DNA of 46,161 nucleotides, taken from IMG/VR virus record IMGVR_UViG_3300048908_000317; one strand, written 5' to 3'. A program made the position numbers and the translations under genes. Under the pieces are notes generated by a model. It did no database searches. It saw only the letters and a program-made list of their open reading frames with translations, and was not told where the DNA came from. Positions 39,787-46,161 of the stretch are shown here, one piece after another. The stretch comes from a virus. Within the stretch, counting starts at the first letter, position 1. Every line of letters starts with the position of its first letter.

Positions 39787-40448
39787 GCGGCCACCGCCTT
39801 CTTCCGCCCGCGGCCCTTCTTCGGCGCGTGCTGCTCCACGAAGGCTTCCGTCGCGTCCGGCTCGCCGCCTTCCGAATCGCTCTCGTCAGGTCCGTCGAAA
39901 AGCGGGTGGTCGCGCTCGAAGGCTTCTGTCGTGCCGTCGATCACGTCAGCGGCGGCGGCAGGCAGCGGGGCGGTCAGGGTGATGGAGACGATCTGCCCGA
40001 GCTTCGCGCCGAGGATGCCCAGCTCGGTCGGGTCGACATCGTTCGTACCCACGTTGAACGAGAGCTCGACGGAGCCTCCCTCCATCACCGAGAGCTTGAA
40101 CTTGTCGACCCGGCAGCTTCCGAGCGTGATGGGCTCGTCCTCGTCGATGCCGTGCTGCACGCGCATCGTCCATCCCTCGAACTTTGGCGTCAGCGGGATC
40201 TCGCCGAGGATGTTCTTCGCGCGCAGCAGGGGCGTCGCCGGCTCCACACCGGGCAACTGCTCCTGATCCGGCACCGCCATGTAGAAGGCGTGCCGCAGGT
40301 CGGCGTGCAGCGCGTCCAGGAGCGTGTTCGCGCCGCAGAGCTTCAGGCGCATGGTGAGCGCGACGACGCTGTCGTCTCCGTGGTGCTCTTCGCGCACGGT
40401 GACTGACGCGACCTTCACGTCGGTGGGGTTCAGGAGCTGGAATTGCAT
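39783..40448 (-). CDS. Hypothetical protein with acidic then basic C-terminal tail
   Basis: 221 aa from ATG 40448 (ACGGAGA RBS). Beta-rich body. Tail DGPDESDSEGGEPDATEAF...KKGRGRKK. Confidence 0.6.
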   Translation of the reverse strand: MQFQLLNPTDVKVASVTVREEHHGDDSVVALTMRLKLCGANTLLDALHADLRHAFYMAVPDQEQLPGVEPATPLLRAKNILGEIPLTPKFEGWTMRVQHGIDEDEPITLGSCRVDKFKLSVMEGGSVELSFNVGTNDVDPTELGILGAKLGQIVSITLTAPLPAAAADVIDGTTEAFERDHPLFDGPDESDSEGGEPDATEAFVEQHAPKKGRGRKKAVAA

Positions 40449-40644
40449 GGTGTCTCCGTGGTGATGAAAGGGTGGGGAGGCGGGCCCACCCGCCCACAGC
40501 GCGGGCCGTCTTCCGCGGCTGCTTGGCCTCCCCGTAGGTGGTGGGCGGAGCCGGCGCAACCCGGCCCTCTCGCTCGGCAGACGTTGGAAATATGCACAGT
40601 CATGCGCCTGCTCGATGCTCACCGCGCGTGCGGCCGCCCCTGGT

Positions 40645-41067
40645 TCAAGTTGTCTCGGGCTCCTCGACGCCGATGCCCTGCTGGGTCGCGTAGGCGACGA
40701 CGTATTCGAGAAGCTCCGCGCACTCGGCTTTCGTGAGCGCGCTCGTTCGCTTCGGGACGAGGTCGACGCCCTGCCCGTCGATCGCGGGGATGATCAGCAC
40801 CGGCTCGCCGCGCTCGCGTGTCCAGGCCGCGACCAGTGCGCGCTTCCAGACCTCGGCGTCGTGCTGCTGGCCGCCGAGCGTGCAGTTCGCAGCGATCTCG
40901 CCGATCCAGGCGTGCAGGGCCGCGTTCTGGCCGGACGTGCGGCCCTCGGGCTTGATCGTGATGACCAGGCGATGGCCGGCAAGGAGCCAGGGCTTCGCCT
41001 CGCGCCACAGGGCTTGCAGGCGCTTGTGCGCTTGCTGGGCGTCAATGAGCATGGCGGTGACGTTCAT
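40645..41067 (-). CDS. ninB: NinB/Orf-family recombination mediator
   Basis: 140 aa. RTSGQNAALHAWIGEIA...HDAEVWKRALVAAW...KRTSALTKAECAELLEYVVAYATQQGI parallels lambda NinB (RSLDQNRKLWACLGDVS...LDAESWKCVFTAAL...STSRMRVGEFAELLELIQAFGTERGV). Confidence 0.6.
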   Translation of the reverse strand: MNVTAMLIDAQQAHKRLQALWREAKPWLLAGHRLVITIKPEGRTSGQNAALHAWIGEIAANCTLGGQQHDAEVWKRALVAAWTRERGEPVLIIPAIDGQGVDLVPKRTSALTKAECAELLEYVVAYATQQGIGVEEPETT

Positions 41068-41387
41068 GCGACCTCCTTGATCTCCGTGCGGCCCGCGGCG
41101 CGTGCGATCTGCTGCATCCGCTCGACGTACTCCCGCTCGAGCGCGCGGCGCTCCTCGCGGGTCATGTCGATGCACATGTCGTGCATCGCGTGGCAGCCCA
41201 TGTGCAGGCCATGCGGGCCGCACAGGGGGAAGGTGTCGAGGTCGCTGGTCTTCATCGAAAGGCCCTTGCCGAAGTTCGCGTGGGCGCACTGGCTGAAGCC
41301 GGCGATGCCGCACCCGAAGCACGGCTTCGATGCGACGAAGCGGCGGTAACCCTCCGAGCGCACGATGCGAGCCTTTGGGAACAACAT
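41064..41387 (-). CDS. DUF968/HNH-like zinc-finger nuclease-like protein
   Basis: 107 aa. RSEGYRRFVASKPCFGCG...CAHANFGKGLSMKTSDLDTFPLCGPHGLHMGCH pattern. Confidence 0.5.
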   Translation of the reverse strand: MLFPKARIVRSEGYRRFVASKPCFGCGIAGFSQCAHANFGKGLSMKTSDLDTFPLCGPHGLHMGCHAMHDMCIDMTREERRALEREYVERMQQIARAAGRTEIKEVA

Positions 41388-42193
41388 CACGCGGCCTTGC
41401 GCTCTGCGTTGAGCTTGGCCTGGGCCGCCTCTTCCTCGTCGTGCAGCCGCTTCATGGCGGTGCGCAGCGCGGAGTGCGGCTTGAGGATCGACCACAGCGC
41501 CAGCTTCTCGTCGTTGTCGGTGATGGCCGACACCTCGCCGTAGGCGTCGATCTCGCGGCTCTCGTTGAAGGCCTGGAGCGCCGCATTCGCGACCGCGCGC
41601 ACGACCTTGTACCGGGCCGGCGTCAGGCCGAAATTGCGCGGGGCATCAACGGGCTCGTTGCCCGCTTCCGCCTGGCCGCCCGACGCAGCCACGCCCCGCC
41701 CCGCCGGCTCGGCCGGCTCCTTCGTGTCGTCGTCCTTGTGGAGGTCGCCCTTGTGCCACAGCTCCAGCGCGGCGCCGAAACGCATCGCGGCATTGCGCAG
41801 CGCGTCGCCGATCACTTCCTTGATCGCGTCGCCGCCGTTCTTGTCCCCGGCGTGGCCGTAGCCCAGGCGCGTCACCCCACAGACGGTGAGCCTGATCCAC
41901 ATGCCGCCAAACCCGTCGAACGTCGGCAGGCCTTCGGGGCTCATGGTCAGCGGCTCCCACGACCAGGACGGATCGGCATCGAGCAGGCGGTCGGTGAGCG
42001 CGGCGTGGCCGACATAGTCCAGGTGCACAGCGCGCTTGTGGTGCCAGGAACCGCAGATTTGGCAGTTGATCGCGGAATCGCGGTTCGCCTTGCGCTCGTC
42101 GATCTGGGCTCTGCTCTCCTTCGGGAGCCGGCTGATCTGGTGGGCTGGGAAGGGCTCGCGCAGCTTCGCGAGGCCCGGATGGATCTCGGACAT
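41387..42193 (-). CDS. Rad52/Sak-like single-strand annealing protein
   Basis: 268 aa. LREPFPAHQISRLP N-terminus and GDAIKEVIGDALRNAAMRFGAALELW motif (compare the G..K.A.SDALKR.A..FG pattern of Rad52-type SSAPs). Confidence 0.5.
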   Translation of the reverse strand: MSEIHPGLAKLREPFPAHQISRLPKESRAQIDERKANRDSAINCQICGSWHHKRAVHLDYVGHAALTDRLLDADPSWSWEPLTMSPEGLPTFDGFGGMWIRLTVCGVTRLGYGHAGDKNGGDAIKEVIGDALRNAAMRFGAALELWHKGDLHKDDDTKEPAEPAGRGVAASGGQAEAGNEPVDAPRNFGLTPARYKVVRAVANAALQAFNESREIDAYGEVSAITDNDEKLALWSILKPHSALRTAMKRLHDEEEAAQAKLNAERKAA

Positions 42194-42203
42194 GGAATCT
42201 CCT

Positions 42204-42326
42204 TCAGAAGGGCAGGCCGCGGAACGCGATGTCGAACGCGATGCGGGCGGCGTAGCGCCACGAGTGGGCGCGGCGGTACTGCCACCACACGGCGGCGAAT
42301 TCGGCGCAGGCGCGCACGGCGTTCAC
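42204..42326 (-). CDS. Tiny ORF (40 aa), amphipathic
   Basis: GTG start with AGGAG 10 nt upstream. VNAVRACAEFAAVWWQYRRAHSWRYAARIAFDIAFRGLPF. GTGA overlap with the upstream tiny ORF. Confidence 0.3.
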   Translation of the reverse strand: MNAVRACAEFAAVWWQYRRAHSWRYAARIAFDIAFRGLPF

Positions 42327-42436
42327 AGCGGGATGCTCCTGTGCTTGAGGCAGTACACGAGTGCGGCAAGGAAGCGCCGCGCGCGACGACGGACGGGAAT
42401 CCGGCCGCCAGTGATCGTCACGGGCACGCCTTTCAC
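42323..42436 (-). CDS. Tiny ORF (37 aa), basic
   Basis: GTG overlapping the stop of the 47-aa ORF. VKGVPVTITGGRIPVRRRARRFLAALVYCLKHRSIPL. Confidence 0.25.
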   Translation of the reverse strand: MKGVPVTITGGRIPVRRRARRFLAALVYCLKHRSIPL

Positions 42437-42576
42437 AGCAACACCTGCGAGGCGATGTTGACCAGCGCCATGGAACAGAGGATCGACACGATCGTCACGA
42501 CGATGTAGACGATCACCGCCGATGCGCCTCGGCGCGGCTCGGGCCGGAAGTGCATGCGGAGCCAGTGCGGGCGCAT
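42433..42576 (-). CDS. Small membrane peptide (47 aa)
   Basis: GGGAGGA RBS. MRPHWLRMHFRPEPRRGASAVIVYIVVTIVSILCSMALVNIASQVLL. One TM helix. Confidence 0.5.
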   Translation of the reverse strand: MRPHWLRMHFRPEPRRGASAVIVYIVVTIVSILCSMALVNIASQVLL

Positions 42577-42680
42577 CACTCGTCCTCCCCGAACTCATGG
42601 CGCAGGCCGGCGATGATCGCCACGACGAACACGATCGTGGCGCCCGTGGCGATGCCAATGAAGAATGCGGCGGCGACCAT
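42576..42680 (-). CDS. Small membrane peptide (34 aa)
   Basis: GGAG RBS. MVAAAFFIGIATGATIVFVVAIIAGLRHEFGEDE. TGATG overlap with the next ORF. Confidence 0.5.
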   Translation of the reverse strand: MVAAAFFIGIATGATIVFVVAIIAGLRHEFGEDE

Positions 42681-42682
42681 GA

Positions 42683-42865
42683 TCAGCTCCACGGGTTGAG
42701 CAACGCGTGCACTTCCAGCGCGCACATCGCAACGATGGCGATCACCATCAGGCCGAGGGCGATGCCCGAGATCACCTCCAGCACCGCGTCGAGCAGCGTC
42801 GGGTCGCGCTCGTTCTCATAGGGCGGCCCTTGCATGGCGCGCTCGGTGGCGGTGATCTCACGCAT
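42683..42865 (-). CDS. Small membrane protein (60 aa)
   Basis: AAGGAG RBS before ATG 42865. TM ISGIALGLMVIAIVAMCAL. Confidence 0.55.
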   Translation of the reverse strand: MREITATERAMQGPPYENERDPTLLDAVLEVISGIALGLMVIAIVAMCALEVHALLNPWS

Positions 42866-43079
42866 GGCCCTTCTCCTTCGGGTAGAGCACTTCCCACATG
42901 GCATCGCCGAGTTCACGCCGCGCGCGGGCCTCCGCGAGCCTCGTCGTGATGTCCGAGACGTTCTGCTCGACCAAAGTGACACCGCGGAAATGGGCCATCG
43001 CCTTCTGGATGTCGTCGGCCATTTCCTGCGACACGTCGTAGGCGAGGAAGACGGTGAAGGAGTGGATGCGGTCAGCCAT
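42858..43079 (-). CDS. Hypothetical protein
   Basis: 73 aa from ATG 43079. Confidence 0.55.
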   Translation of the reverse strand: MADRIHSFTVFLAYDVSQEMADDIQKAMAHFRGVTLVEQNVSDITTRLAEARARRELGDAMWEVLYPKEKGHA

Positions 43080-43269
43080 GGTGGTTCGCCTCGGCTGCGA
43101 AGTCCGCGTGATCGAACCGCTCCCTCGGCGCGCGCTCCTGGCGAACGTGGTCGTTGCGGCCCAGCGTGAGCCCGAACAGGAACGCCTCGCGCGCCAGGAC
43201 TTCCGGGCGAAGGTGCTTGTGTGCTTCATGCCATGAGGCCCATGAGGCGTCGCGTGTGGTGGATGTCAT
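43072..43269 (-). CDS. Hypothetical protein
   Basis: 65 aa. AAGGAG RBS. Confidence 0.5.
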   Translation of the reverse strand: MTSTTRDASWASWHEAHKHLRPEVLAREAFLFGLTLGRNDHVRQERAPRERFDHADFAAEANHHG

Positions 43270-43556
43270 CCCAGCTCCTTCGGGTCGACGCCGGCCGCAA
43301 CGAGCGCGGCGCGGCATTGGCTGATCTCTTCCTCGCTGCCCAAGATCAGGACGTAGTCCCAGGCCTTGAGCAGGGCGGTCAGGAGCTCCGGGAGCGCCGC
43401 GATCGCCCGCTGCACTCGGTCGGCCTCCTCGACGCCGATCCCGCCGCTGAATACCTCGCAGATGAGGAGGCATCCCGGGTCGTCTGTGACGACCATTCGA
43501 TGGTTGGTAACCTTCCAGCGCTTCTGCAGCGCCGGCGTGTGCTTCGCGGCGCTCAT
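43266..43556 (-). CDS. Hypothetical protein
   Basis: 96 aa. GGAG RBS. ATGA overlaps on both sides. Confidence 0.55.
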   Translation of the reverse strand: MSAAKHTPALQKRWKVTNHRMVVTDDPGCLLICEVFSGGIGVEEADRVQRAIAALPELLTALLKAWDYVLILGSEEEISQCRAALVAAGVDPKELG

Positions 43557-43918
43557 GACTGCATCTCCATCAGCGGCCCGAACTGCGCTTCCAGCACGCC
43601 GAGGGCGTTCTGTTGGCCGATCTCTGCGGCGAGGGCGAAGCGCAGGTTGTTGACGCGGGCGACCAGAGATTCCGACGTCGTCGTCTGGAGCACTTGCAGG
43701 AGGTGCCACATCACGCCGTCTTCTGACAGCGCCATGCCGACGGCCTGACCGATCGGCTCCTGGTATTCGACCGTGCGCGAGTCGACGCACCCCGGCGTGT
43801 ACTTCGTGTAGGAGCCTGTCACCGTCGCCAGCCCGCGGGCCATCGCGACCTCGGCCTCTTGCTTCAGCTCCTCGGCCTTCGCGGCTTCGAATGCTTCGAT
43901 CGATGCGTTGCGGGCCAT
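43553..43918 (-). CDS. Hypothetical protein
   Basis: 121 aa. GGAGG RBS. Starts 1 nt after the pentapeptide gene stop. Confidence 0.6.
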   Translation of the reverse strand: MARNASIEAFEAAKAEELKQEAEVAMARGLATVTGSYTKYTPGCVDSRTVEYQEPIGQAVGMALSEDGVMWHLLQVLQTTTSESLVARVNNLRFALAAEIGQQNALGVLEAQFGPLMEMQS

Positions 43919-43919
43919 G

Positions 43920-44732
43920 TCAAGCCTCCACTGCCGCTTGCAGCAGCGCCGTGAATTCGTCGATCCACTCGACGGCCAACTTCGAGGCGCTGTTCGTCTC
44001 GGGCGTATCGCCGCGCTTGATCGCGAAGAAGAAGGATTCCGCCGGCCTGCCGCTGTCAGGCGTGATGCCGGCACCCAGCTCTTGATAGTTCGCGCCGCGC
44101 GCGTTCGCGATCGTGCCGACGAGGCAGGCGCACTCGCCTTCGTAGACCGAGCCATCGACCTTGCCGGCAATGAGTGCCGCGCGCAGGGCTGCGACCTCCT
44201 TCGGCGCACGAAGCAGGATGTCGAAGACATCCGCCTTGACCGCGCTCAGGTTGGCGTCGCTCAGGTAGGCGCCGCTCAGGTTGGCGTCGCTCAGGTTGGC
44301 GCCGCTCAGGTTGGCGCCGCTCAGGTTGGCGTCGCTCAGGTTGGCGCCGCGCAGGTTGGCGCCGCGCAGGTTGGCGCCGCTCAGGTTGGCGCCGCCCAGG
44401 TTGGCGTCGCCCAGGTTGGCGCCGCCCAGGTTGGCGTCGCCCAGGTTGGCGCCGCTCAGGTCGGCGCCGCGCAGGTTGGCGCCGCTCAGGTCGGCGCCGC
44501 CCAGGTTGGCGCCGCTCAGGTCGGCGCCGCCCAGGTTGGCGCCGCGCAGGTTGGCGTCGCTCAGGTTGGCGCCGCGCAGGTTGGCGCCGCGCAGGTAGGC
44601 GCCGCTCGCAGTCGCGGCTTCGAGCGCATGCCGCATCTCCATACCGCTCTCGACGCCCTCGGGGACTTCGTAGGTGAACAGCACGCGAGACGAATCCCAG
44701 CGGCTGACGATTTGCACGGTGCGCTCGGCCAT
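43920..44732 (-). CDS. Pentapeptide-repeat protein (first gene of the leftward early operon)
   Basis: 270 aa from ATG 44732 (GGAGG RBS). Small N-terminal domain, 24 tandem A(N/D/Y)L(S/R/G)(G/D) pentapeptides, then a ~105-aa C-terminal domain (CACLVGTIA...). Confidence 0.85.
44247..44606 (-). repeat. 24 x 15-nt tandem repeat (plus-strand unit caggttggcgccgct) encoding the pentapeptide array
   Basis: Units counted directly. Differences are confined to three positions of the unit. Confidence 0.95.
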
Positions 44733-44784
44733 CTCGCCTCCTACCGGCCCCCGCTCGGCGAGCGTTTCTGGAACCGTTGGAGGC

Positions 44785-44821
44785 AATGTAATGCGTATCC
44801 GCCTAACATGCAAGGCGGATA
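44785..44821 (-). promoter_or_regulatory. Predicted PL promoter (TTGCAT-17-TACATT on the minus strand) overlapped by operator TATCCGCCT-N8-AGGCGGATA
   Basis: Inverted repeat at 44796-44821 read directly. Hexamers at 44813-44808 and 44790-44785. The same half-site occurs in the cI/cro intergenic region. Confidence 0.5.
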
Positions 44822-44845
44822 AGCCTAAGACGTGACGCGCCGCTA

Positions 44846-44869
44846 GGACATTGTCGTTATGACAATGCC
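44846..44869 (-). terminator. Hairpin downstream of the cI operon (possible terminator/insulator)
   Basis: GGCATTGTC-ataac-GACAATGTCC on the minus strand, 6 nt after the 81-aa gene stop. No clear U-tract. Confidence 0.3.
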
Positions 44870-44874
44870 GGACG

Positions 44875-45120
44875 TTATTCCAATCCGTTCCGTACGCGCT
44901 GGGCGAGCTGGTCGTCGAGCGTGGCGAGCATGCCCCGGCTGAAGGTCGGGTTGCGGTGCGCCTCGCCGGCCGTGTTTGTGATGTACGCGCGGCGCTTGAG
45001 CATGGCCGCGAATGCGATGCCGATGATTTCGCCCTTGCGGGCCTCGGCGAGCAGCGTCTCCAGGCACTCGATGGTGTCGCGCGAGACGATGTCCTGTACC
45101 AGGACGAATGGCGGTTTCAT
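44875..45120 (-). CDS. Hypothetical protein co-transcribed and translationally coupled with the repressor
   Basis: 81 aa. GGAGGG RBS inside the cI 3-prime end. ATGA overlap with the cI stop. Confidence 0.6.
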
Positions 45121-45506
45121 TTCTTGGTGACCCTCCGCTTCGGAACCCCGTTCCCAATCCAACGGTCGCCTCCCACTGGGATGGCGCCTATCTGTCGCTG
45201 CATCTCCGTCAGCGATTCCTTCAGCCGCTCCGTGGCCGACGCCTCCAGCAGCATCGGTGGGTGCGCGGGCGCGAAGTCCGGAACCATGAGCTGCCAGCCG
45301 GCCAGGTGCCATCCCTTATCGTTCAGGGCATCCACGATGGCCGCGATCATGACCTCTGTGGGGCTAATGCTCCCGTTGACGATCCGGTTGACCGTGCTCT
45401 GTACGAGCCCGTACTTTGCCGAGAACCCGTTCACGGAAAGTCCCTCGAAGTCGCATAGCCGCTTGAGGTTCGCCCCGACAGTTCCGATAACGCGTTCCTT
45501 GCCCAT
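45117..45506 (-). CDS. XRE-family HTH repressor (cI-like), no autocleavage domain
   Basis: 129 aa from ATG 45506. GANLKRLCDFEGLSVNGFSAKYGLVQSTVNRIVNGSISP is an XRE HTH. Divergent from the cro-like gene. No S24 Ser/Lys motifs. No SD upstream. Confidence 0.7.
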   Translation of the reverse strand: MGKERVIGTVGANLKRLCDFEGLSVNGFSAKYGLVQSTVNRIVNGSISPTEVMIAAIVDALNDKGWHLAGWQLMVPDFAPAHPPMLLEASATERLKESLTEMQRQIGAIPVGGDRWIGNGVPKRRVTKK

Positions 45507-45520
45507 CCGTGAATGATGCC

Positions 45521-45572
45521 GATCCGCCTTAGGCGGAAAAGCTTTGCAATCTAAGGCGGATGTGCCTAAGAT
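45521..45572 (+). promoter_or_regulatory. Predicted PR promoter (TTGCAA-17-TAAGAT) with operator half-sites
   Basis: Palindrome ATCCGCCT-t-AGGCGGA at 45522-45537. AAGGCGGAT at 45553-45561 inside the 17-nt spacer, in the same relative position as in PL. Confidence 0.5.
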
Positions 45573-45579
45573 GCGGGGC

Positions 45580-45816
45580 ATGACACTATCCAGCATCGTT
45601 TCACGCCTCCAGGCTTGCCGGAACTCCGGTGCGTGGGAACGCATCGCGAAGCGGGCAGATGTCAACTACGGGACGATCTCGCGCATCGTCTGCGGCCGGC
45701 TTCAAAACCCGGGCGTCCTGACCTGCGAAAAGATCGAACGCGCGATGGATGCCGAGGGCATTCCGGTCGCTGCCCAATCCGCCGAGCCCGCTACCGCGGT
45801 GGCCGGGGAGGGGTAG
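45580..45816 (+). CDS. Cro-like HTH regulator
   Basis: 78 aa from ATG 45580 (alternative ATG at 45571). ERIAKRADVNYGTISRIVCGRL is an HTH. Divergent from the repressor. Confidence 0.6.
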   Translation: MTLSSIVSRLQACRNSGAWERIAKRADVNYGTISRIVCGRLQNPGVLTCEKIERAMDAEGIPVAAQSAEPATAVAGEG

Positions 45817-45981
45817 ATGCGCAGTCTCCTCGACGACGTGCTCGAAGGCCTCGCGGCCATCGTCATCGCTGGTGTTGCGCTGTGCATCGGCCTCGCGGTG
45901 TTGTGGGTCGTCTGCTACTTCGCTGGCGGGCTGTGGGTGTCTCTGCAGGCGCTGTGGCCGTTCGTCGAGGAGTGTTGCTGA
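45817..45981 (+). CDS. Small membrane protein (54 aa)
   Basis: GGGGAGGGG RBS. MRSLLDDVLEGLAAIVIAGVALCIGLAVLWVVCYFAGGLWVSLQALWPFVEECC. Starts 1 nt after the cro-like stop. Confidence 0.55.
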   Translation: MRSLLDDVLEGLAAIVIAGVALCIGLAVLWVVCYFAGGLWVSLQALWPFVEECC

Positions 45982-45982
45982 C

Positions 45983-46161
45983 ATGGCTCATCGACCCAGG
46001 TCCAACCGTGCCGCCGCGGCCATGGCCACACGCACCTTCGCGCGCAGCCCGCTCGCATCGGCGCTCCATAGCTGCGCCTCGGCCCTCAGGTCGCGCGCGA
46101 TCTCGTGCAGCAGTACGCAGACGCGAAACCGCGCCCACAGCGTGAGTGAGTCTTCCATTGG
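45983..46161 (+). CDS. Candidate 67-aa Ser/Arg/Ala-rich ORF continuing through the junction to nt 152 (alternative to the minus-strand ORF above)
   Basis: ATG 45983 lies 1 nt after the previous stop, and its TGA overlaps the cII-like ATG (TGATG at 150-154). The composition looks like an antisense translation. Confidence 0.3.
   Translation, partial: MAHRPRSNRAAAAMATRTFARSPLASALHSCASALRSRAISCSSTQTRNRAHSVSESSI
45988..46158 (-). CDS. Candidate 56-aa helical protein on the minus strand, spanning the circular junction (alternative to the plus-strand ORF below)
   Basis: MEDSLTLWARFRVCVLLHEIARDLRAEAQLWSADASGLRAKVRVAMAAAARLDLGR. A GGGAGGAGG RBS lies at 128-136 after wrap-around. No convincing promoter found. 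Confidence 0.35.
   Translation of the reverse strand: MEDSLTLWARFRVCVLLHEIARDLRAEAQLWSADASGLRAKVRVAMAAAARLDLGR
46035..46161. repeat. Terminal direct repeat, copy 2 (identical to 1-127)
   Basis: Same 127 nt as the window start. Consistent with a circular assembly overlap or terminal redundancy. Confidence 0.95.

Follow-up and report, generated by a model that had tools for sequence, protein, structure and literature searches.

In the pentapeptide-repeat fold, residues i-1, i+1 and i+2 of each unit face outward, and Ala (i-2) and Leu (i) fill the core. Genes carrying such repeats abound in phage genomes, where their annotation follows the analogy with quinolone-resistance proteins and they receive no further attention. 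In the literature we searched, they are named in annotations or presumed to act on gyrase or in quinolone resistance, with the exception of a single Vibrio phage gene. That gene, 24_60 of Vibrio phage 24, encodes a pentapeptide-repeat protein that counters the Sucellos defence system, with gain-of-function (escape) changes at Y112 and N115 (bioRxiv 10.1101/2024.07.02.601686). We describe here a pentapeptide-repeat gene of the IMG/VR virus record IMGVR_UViG_3300048908_000317, a stretch of 46,161 nucleotides that is referred to below as the window. The coding sequence (43920..44732, minus strand; 270 aa plus stop), identified as an open reading frame (ORF) with its translation, is an early, accessory gene in a lambdoid temperate phage whose ~46-kb genome is circularly closed, and its product joins an N-terminal cap, an array of 24 near-identical pentapeptide units and a helical C-terminal domain. 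We propose, with a probability of roughly 0.55, that this protein is an early accessory factor at the phage-host interface, in which constant end domains carry a rapidly diversifying solenoid.

The window protein shares with other PF00805 proteins (2J8K, HetL 3DU1 and the synthetic Beta1 protein 4YC5) its A(N/D)LXX repeats, a predicted four-sided beta-helix with four repeats per coil, and the combination of invariant inward Ala and Leu with variable outward i-1, i+1 and i+2 residues. It differs from them in that its repeats are near-identical in nucleotides, whereas most natural members are long-diverged, and in that the array is flanked by a specific N-terminal cap (N-cap) and a conserved 105-aa C-terminal domain (C-domain) without known relative. 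Its PF00805 match, at 181.3 bits against a Pfam cut-off of 20.2 (E = 1.7e-54), places it within the repeat family, and it also scores above the Pfam cut-offs of PF13576 and PF13599. The AlphaFold2 (AF2) model of the whole protein, built from a 64-sequence alignment, has a predicted local distance difference test score (pLDDT) of 94. In this model the N-cap (aa 1-42; 44607..44732, minus strand) consists of a beta-hairpin followed by a helix (strands 4-10 and 17-23, helix 32-42, pLDDT 88-97); it matches phrog_31567 in PHROGs and is conserved at three family loci (L033, L004 and L005) and in the family alignment A1. Residues 48-162 carry a strand every 5 residues at pLDDT ~96, and the array is thus predicted to form a right-handed four-sided beta-helix of six coils. 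The closest Foldseek matches in the PDB are generic pentapeptide solenoids, namely Np275/Np276 (2J8K; E = 1e-10, root-mean-square deviation 0.4 over 112 columns), synthetic Beta1 proteins and HetL, with MfpA, QnrB1 and AlbG among the matches at lower rank.

The C-domain (aa 163-270, 108 aa; 43923..44246, minus strand) is delimited by invariant columns and by the AF2 model; the two flanking regions measure 42 and 108 aa, in agreement with the initial annotation. It is helical over residues 163-269 of the full model and, when modelled alone, reaches pLDDT 89.8 and a predicted template modelling score of 0.84. Alignments A1 and A2 (64 and 47 sequences) define the motif G-x-x-Y-x-G-x-C-x-C...T...E..F...G..P, with G190, G194, Y197, G199, C201, C203, T207, E232, F235, G241 and P244 invariant. 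Searches with the sequence of this domain against NCBIfam, PHROGs, PADLOC and Pfam gave no match, in Pfam not even at E <= 10; a profile search against the PDB returned no relative apart from residual repeat columns, and Foldseek found no structure resembling the model of the domain in either the PDB, where the best E was 5.3, or the viral library BFVD.

The repeat array itself (44247..44606, minus strand; aa 43-162) consists of 24 in-frame 15-nt units with the consensus AGC GGC GCC AAC CTG, encoding S-G-A-N-L. A unit table reproduces exactly the extent, unit number and consensus given in the initial annotation; Tandem Repeats Finder delimits 44243-44607 with period 15, 24.3 copies and no indels. 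The three variable nucleotides that the annotation had counted, their codon positions and the lack of synonymous change are equally correct. Each unit varies at these three nucleotides only, always at a first or second codon position: unit position 1 is A, C or G in 12, 6 and 6 units (S/R/G), position 5 is G or A in 18 and 6 (G/D), and position 10 is A, G or T in 19, 3 and 2 (N/D/Y), corresponding to residues i+1, i+2 and i-1, respectively, of A(N/D)LXX. There are eight distinct units and no synonymous differences among them, and the proportions of synonymous and nonsynonymous differences (pS and pN) are 0 and 0.13. In the long ORFs of the window with high third-position GC content, GCC makes up 40% of Ala codons, CTG 52% of Leu codons and AGC 33% of Ser codons; given this usage, the probability that 120 independent codon choices would be as observed is ~10^-28.7, which rules out codon bias as the source of the uniformity and indicates common descent of the units. 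The 30-mer consensus of the array has no further occurrence in the window.

Unit order within the array is not featureless. At lag 2 the unit identity is 0.32 instead of the 0.11 expected (P = 0.003), a super-period of two units or 30 nt, and eight of the nine Asp-containing units stand at even positions (post hoc P ~0.009); the four-sided solenoid would thereby bear acidic residues on two faces opposite each other. Units 6-15 are the only ones in which the first position can be Gly. Plain block duplication was considered as the source of this order and rejected, repeated k-unit blocks being no more frequent than in shuffles, and no general period emerges over the family, lag 4 being significant in 5 of 25 arrays and lag 2 in 2 of 25. 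Collapse of the repeat count during assembly is unlikely: the window closes on itself through an exact 127-bp terminal overlap (1-127 = 46035-46161), and every 55-mer or longer word across the array is unique. The window is therefore a circularly closed contig of ~46,034 bp, apparently a complete temperate phage genome assembled at k = 127.

Comparison of 30 orthologous arrays gives this pattern its evolutionary meaning. The invariant Ala codon is GCC, GCG, GCT or GCA depending on the lineage, and the invariant Leu codon CTG, CTC, CTT or TTA, with ~100% uniformity inside each array. Codons that are lineage-specific and uniform within arrays point to concerted evolution, and recent amplification or concerted evolution, as initially proposed, is therefore a well-supported mechanism that we regard as highly probable. 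Mean pS within arrays is 0.059, against a mean pN of 0.155. pN exceeds pS in 28 of the 30 arrays (sign test 4e-7) and in 25 of 27 once closely related Burkholderia alleles are left out; across arrays, 43 distinct variants are synonymous and 193 nonsynonymous, where 27% synonymous would be expected. The confinement of variation to the surface residues i-1, i+1 and i+2 extends in this way from the window to the family.

The mode of change is most directly visible in five Burkholderia prophage alleles whose N- and C-domains are nearly identical. Their lengths range from 209 to 284 aa in steps that are always multiples of 5 aa, bearing out the predicted slippage in 5-aa steps, and four of them, with flank pS of 0.000-0.068, nonetheless have 27, 23, 27 and 15 units. 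Whole-unit copy change between near-identical alleles, the hallmark of in-frame variable-number tandem repeats (VNTRs) and contingency loci, is thus found among these orthologues. Unit order between the alleles is like that of random shuffles (z ~0, with no shared block of four or more units), and in the two 27-unit alleles, with a flank pS of 0.01, 10-14 of 27 units (37-52%) differ at each variable site. The variable positions are the same three as in the window, namely 1 (A/C), 5 (G/A) and 10 (A/G/T).

The simplest mechanism consistent with these data is one where out-of-register pairing of identical units, through replication slippage or unequal recombination, would add, remove and recombine units far faster than point mutation acts. 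Such turnover would homogenise neutral sites, including synonymous ones, scramble unit order and alter array length in 5-aa steps, and crossovers between the three polymorphic sites would yield new combinations of variants. S/R/G at i+1, G/D at i+2 and N/D/Y at i-1 stay polymorphic in every lineage despite this turnover. We argue that the survival of polymorphism at three outward sites therefore reflects selection for a heterogeneous and changeable solenoid surface.

The gene belongs, by sequence, to a large unnamed family with three modules, the N-cap, a solenoid of 1 to >35 units and the GxxYxGxCxC C-domain. A C-domain search of a word-indexed database recovered 165 proteins, and a search of 1.84 billion representatives recovered 1,049 clusters at E <= 1e-3 and 794 at E <= 1e-10, in which the domain is always C-terminal in proteins of 100-350 aa. 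The 30 genome loci of the family span at least seven phyla, and include Beta- and Alphaproteobacteria, Acidobacteriota, Verrucomicrobiota, Planctomycetota, Bacteroidota, Actinomycetota, Gemmatimonadota and Paenibacillus. Family members recurrently open with an N-cap (xIxIxxRWxxxVLF...), continue with a highly regular repeat stretch and end in the C-domain, and their unit numbers are spread near-evenly from 1-3 to 32 or more. In a minority of members a hexapeptide 'GDAxVxGNAxV' solenoid substitutes for the pentapeptide array (L012:5548-6315, L017:2795-3544, L022:5488-6399, P0109, P0251, P0259 and P0365); among these are two Burkholderia sp. TSV86 loci (L012 and L017) and one Acidimicrobiaceae locus. 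In these members the C-domain is joined to a YdcK-like 'GNARVYGDAWVS' hexapeptide solenoid, likewise highly regular, and the N-terminal domain is a different one; PF18836 is recorded for P0109. Over the family as a whole, the two end domains are the constants, and the solenoid is an expandable and even exchangeable module.

The window protein is identical to database protein P0121, from the same 46,161-bp contig, and its closest relative is P0122 on contig L033 (JGI Ga0467056_0000094), at 67-71% identity. Megablast of 40000-46161 against 50,697 phage records returned no match, the contig collections, viral and metagenomic, contained none of the exact flank patterns, and an exact-protein lookup gave no match. 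Members listed by the C-domain search of the word-indexed database (P0001-P0120, mostly metagenomic) are all <=190 aa, many of them from contigs of 1-5 kb, and members from genome loci L003-L032 and the full-length search reach 250-330 aa. Since many database members end inside the repeats, the arrays appear to break or distort short-read assemblies, which suggests that assemblies and gene calls are routinely truncated there.

Wherever its genomic position was compared, the gene stands in a temperate-phage early operon. In the window, the minus strand carries in order a cI-like gene, an 81-aa ORF, a 142-nt spacer, the pentapeptide gene, a 121-aa ORF and further small ORFs, and the left operon continues with a single-strand annealing protein (42193-41387), an HNH endonuclease and an integrase (36208-35195). 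The cI-like helix-turn-helix (HTH) repressor gene (45117..45506, minus strand), recognised from HTH_31 and HTH_3 matches below the Pfam cut-offs, is divergent from a cro-like ORF at 45544-45816. Operator-like sites are found on either side of the repressor operon. The OL candidate (44786..44832) combines the inverted repeat ATCCGCCT-N8-AGGCGGAT with the 19-mer AAGGCGGATAAGCCTAAGA at 44812-44830, which matches the repressor/cro intergenic site at 17 of 19 positions; the OR candidate (45522..45572) combines the palindrome TCCGCCTAAGGCGGA with the counterpart of that 19-mer, AAGGCGGATGTGCCTAAGA, at 45553-45571. With at most one mismatch, TTAGGCGGAT occurs four times in the 46-kb window, only at the OL region and at 45522-45561. 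Sites common to both regions are the expected signature of OL and OR operators and support their candidate assignment as such. A candidate leftward early promoter (44785..44813, minus strand) has a -35 hexamer TTGCAT (44808-44813), a 17-nt spacer and a -10 hexamer TACATT (44785-44790); the hexamers are weak (3/6 and 4/6 matches) and overlap the operator repeat, and a consensus scan upstream of the gene detected no sigma-70 promoter and no intrinsic terminator at the scan threshold.

The same location recurs in related phages. The homologue in Bordetella phage vB_BaM-IFTN6 (gp49) is the first gene after the repressor cluster. In Salmonella phage ST104 the homologue (orf19) belongs to the PL (leftward early promoter) operon, where it follows the antiterminator gene 24, neighbours ral and precedes 17, c3, kil, erf and abc. 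In five prophages of Burkholderia and one of Bordetella the gene stands between an S24/HTH repressor and Erf/RecT/YqaJ/Lar genes, and one prophage each of Mucilaginibacter and Tepidisphaeraceae carries it in a comparable early region. The early-operon location is found in the window and 11 related loci. IFTN6 gp49, ST104 orf19 with its P22-like relatives, and the Burkholderia entries share both the three modules and the early-left-operon position, and are deposited only as 'pentapeptide repeat' or 'hypothetical'. The related operator-like sites and the synteny in Bordetella, Salmonella P22-like and Burkholderia phages sustain the original placement of the gene as the first cistron behind an operator-bearing leftward promoter region, and we consider early expression probable.

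How the solenoid is used is the point on which readings diverge. The initial annotation pointed to a candidate DNA mimic, considered here as a B-DNA mimic that binds gyrase or topoisomerase IV (as Qnr, MfpA, AlbG and McbG do) or blocks DNA-binding defence enzymes (as do Ocr and ArdA). The predicted fold agrees with this, MfpA, QnrB1 and AlbG are among the Foldseek matches, the whole protein is acidic (isoelectric point 4.58, net charge -11), the Asp units of the array are biased toward two opposite faces, and the neighbours of the gene in ST104 and some Burkholderia prophages include the ral and Lar restriction-alleviation genes; Qnr, MfpA, AlbG and McbG likewise share fold class, overall acidity and carriage on mobile elements with the window protein. 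Against it, the array alone is only net -3, its 120 aa including 9 acidic residues and 6 basic ones; net charge varies between -14 and +4 among orthologous arrays and between -25 and ~+1 among whole proteins, and on this measure an acidic, DNA-like surface does not seem to be conserved. Mimicry would moreover need a conserved acidic rod of defined length, whereas the family includes members with 1-3 repeats or with hexapeptide solenoids, has an array of hypervariable length and keeps as its conserved element the C-domain, whose 105 aa of unmatched fold take the place of the short dimerisation helix of Qnr and MfpA. The best structural matches are cyanobacterial and synthetic solenoids rather than gyrase-binding proteins, and every named NCBIfam subfamily considered (Qnr types, MfpA, PipB and HetL) was rejected on scores far below the curated cut-offs: for MfpA 55.9 bits against 360, for Qnr 46.8 against 240, and for QnrA/B/C/D/S/VC 27-51 against 425-500, i.e. 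27-56 bits against 240-500 overall, such that the window protein is not an equivalog of these proteins. Ocr and ArdA are also early-expressed acidic proteins of mobile elements, but the array is far less charged and its charge is not conserved over the family, and no similarity of this type was found in Pfam, PHROG, PDB or BFVD searches. Finally, BREX was not inhibited by McbG or QnrB, both of them pentapeptide proteins (PMC7261183), indicating that mimicry alone is insufficient. On this evidence we consider a DNA mimic quite unlikely. A neutral, slippage-prone spacer, i.e. an unstable linker tolerated between functional end domains under weak constraint and without an arms race, would account for the flat distribution of unit number from 1-3 to >30, the swappable solenoid type and the random-looking unit order of alleles, and the five distinct substitutions of the window are sufficient for it. 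An unconstrained linker should, however, show equal pN and pS, in conflict with the excess of pN in nearly all arrays; rapid turnover should also erase neutral polymorphism, whereas intermediate-frequency variants persist at the same three positions in every lineage with synonymous sites nearly fixed, and long arrays are kept in many complete genomes. We therefore hold a neutral spacer to be unlikely, although less so than mimicry.

Position and sequence also bear on two further explanations. The protein could be a lysogen-expressed prophage defence or superinfection-exclusion factor, produced by read-through from the repressor operon as are rexAB in lambda: the gene shares its strand with the cI-like gene and the 81-aa ORF and begins only 142 nt past the latter, neither a canonical terminator nor a strong promoter was detected, and a sensor of incoming phage would be just as well served by hypervariability, bacterial NLR-like defence proteins having been suggested to use pentapeptide repeats as sensor modules (bioRxiv 10.1101/2022.07.19.500537). 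This is rendered very improbable by the operator-like sites, common to the cI/cro region, that separate the repressor operon from the gene, by the placement of the ST104 homologue inside the PL operon, past antiterminator gene 24 and beside ral, kil, erf and abc, by the contiguity of the gene with early recombination genes in all related prophages, and by the lack of any PADLOC match. Adenine-specific mutagenesis by a diversity-generating retroelement (DGR) would make nonsynonymous-only variation, and A is the consensus at two of the three variable positions (changing to C/G and to G/T); on contig L033, moreover, the pentapeptide gene is preceded at 1.6 kb by bAvd and a reverse transcriptase. 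DGR mutagenesis of the window array was nevertheless rejected, tblastn detecting no reverse transcriptase or Avd homologue in the window and no template copy of the array lying elsewhere in it. At unit position 11, next to a variable A, the A does not change, and position 5 is G/A; the 178-nt repeat pair of the L033 retroelement belongs to lectin-like ORFs, at their 3' ends, and no reverse transcriptase lies near the Burkholderia, Bordetella, Mucilaginibacter or Tepidisphaeraceae genes, leaving a DGR with almost negligible probability. The L033 element (L033:1-2449, bAvd and RVT_1) contains two 178-nt copies, 94% identical, at L033:1-178 and 504-681, with their 11 differences lying within 38 nt; it is unconnected with the pentapeptide array.

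Several observations likewise weigh against the interpretation that we prefer, an early phage-host interface factor with a diversifying solenoid. A role in conflict rests on position, hypervariability and one unrelated precedent, and no family homologue has a known function. The existence of arrays with 1-3 units means that the solenoid may be dispensable for core activity. Within the window only five distinct substitutions are seen, and with 12 of the 45 possible single changes in the consensus unit being synonymous, the probability that all five would be nonsynonymous is 0.21; this excess is not significant, so that selection is demonstrated not by the window alone but by replication across the family. 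A site-specific mutational bias at the three positions is a formally possible alternative, read-through from the repressor operon in lysogens is possible given the weak promoter and the lack of a detected terminator, and, the nearest relative of the window being 67% identical, copy-number change is unobserved in its own lineage.

Under the interface reading, the protein would be made at the onset of lytic growth from the repressor-controlled leftward promoter and would act in phage-host conflict, as a counter-defence factor or as a binder of a host factor. The constant N and C modules would supply core activity or oligomerisation, and the solenoid would be a fast-evolving surface that engages a variable host partner or escapes recognition by one. 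Weighing the comparative evidence, we rate a conflict role as an even proposition and an anti-defence role as plausible. The closest functional precedent, 24_60, is also a phage pentapeptide-repeat protein and its anti-defence role has genetic evidence; it comes from another host and phage type and is compared here by description only. No PADLOC match identifies the window protein as a known defence-system component. In DotG/IcmE of the Legionella/Coxiella type IVB secretion system, the number of pentapeptide repeats varies between species and strains, in a central region beside a conserved C-terminal domain as in the present family (PMC6761968); unlike the window protein, it is a secretion-channel component with TrbI/VirB10-like flanks, and the corresponding NCBIfam score of the window protein, 12.5 bits, is negligible. 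By analogy, transcription activator-like (TAL) effector repeats and in-frame VNTR or contingency loci also have nucleotide-identical coding repeats with variation in few specificity codons, and inter-repeat recombination gives them new alleles and copy numbers. TAL-effector repeats differ in that they are not homologous to the present units, and unit-by-unit ligand reading is not implied here, where successive units lie on successive faces of a four-sided rod.

A bolder and rather doubtful extension is that diversification is driven by recombination without a dedicated enzyme, the identical units serving as a cassette array in which slippage re-assorts the three specificity positions and the unit number. 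If so, temperate phages would gain alternative binding or evasion surfaces on a fixed CxC-domain effector, a 'programmable solenoid' akin to TAL effectors or variable lymphocyte receptors (VLRs) in an arms race with host defences, and the uniform synonymous sites would be selected to keep the array recombinogenic instead of arising as a by-product.

The fold, the presence of pentapeptide genes in phages and the deposited homologues are already known. Neither the C-domain family nor the hypervariability of its arrays is described in the literature searched, and three elements appear new with respect to it: the three-module family with its unmatched C-domain, its fixed early-operon place in temperate phages across phyla, and the quantified concerted evolution with kept surface polymorphism and array scrambling between near-identical alleles. 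The repeat module outpaces its flanks in evolution by orders of magnitude and keeps a specific pattern of surface polymorphism, and early position, fast repeats and kept surface polymorphism together are typical of host-parasite interface molecules. The family is hence a tangible candidate, open to testing, for a new class of factors that counter defences or target the host, and its genes in phage genomes should not be reported as antibiotic-resistance (Qnr-like) determinants.

The surroundings of the gene in the window contain further features. The 81-aa ORF (44875..45120, minus strand; AGGAG upstream) occupies the 'rex position' directly 3' of the repressor gene and has no protein-family match, PADLOC included; a homologue (37% identity, 3e-12) is encoded at a Nitrosovibrio locus (L008:3230-3454), ~2 kb upstream of the pentapeptide gene there. 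This weak match at one locus aside, none of the window neighbours recurs beside family members as a conserved partner gene. A 9-bp hairpin without U-tract, an inverted repeat past the stop of the 81-aa ORF (44845..44869, minus strand), is a possible end of the repressor operon. On the other side, the next cistron, a 121-aa ORF (43553..43918, minus strand), has its ATG 1 nt past the pentapeptide stop (TGAcATG), and translational coupling is therefore likely. Neither it nor the ORF at 43266-43556 (minus strand) has a Pfam or PHROG match or a homologue in ~40 related loci, and both small ORFs are lineage-specific early genes. The pentapeptide gene itself starts with ATG (44732-44730), preceded at 4 nt by a Shine-Dalgarno sequence, AGGAGG (44737..44742, minus strand), read from the sequence. 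Its leader (44733-44880, minus strand), which takes in the 9-bp hairpin, is strongly structured (minimum free energy -66.1 kcal/mol, z = -4.7), and one helix of the predicted RNA fold joins the Shine-Dalgarno region to UUGCCUCC (44779-44786), suggesting that translation is controlled.

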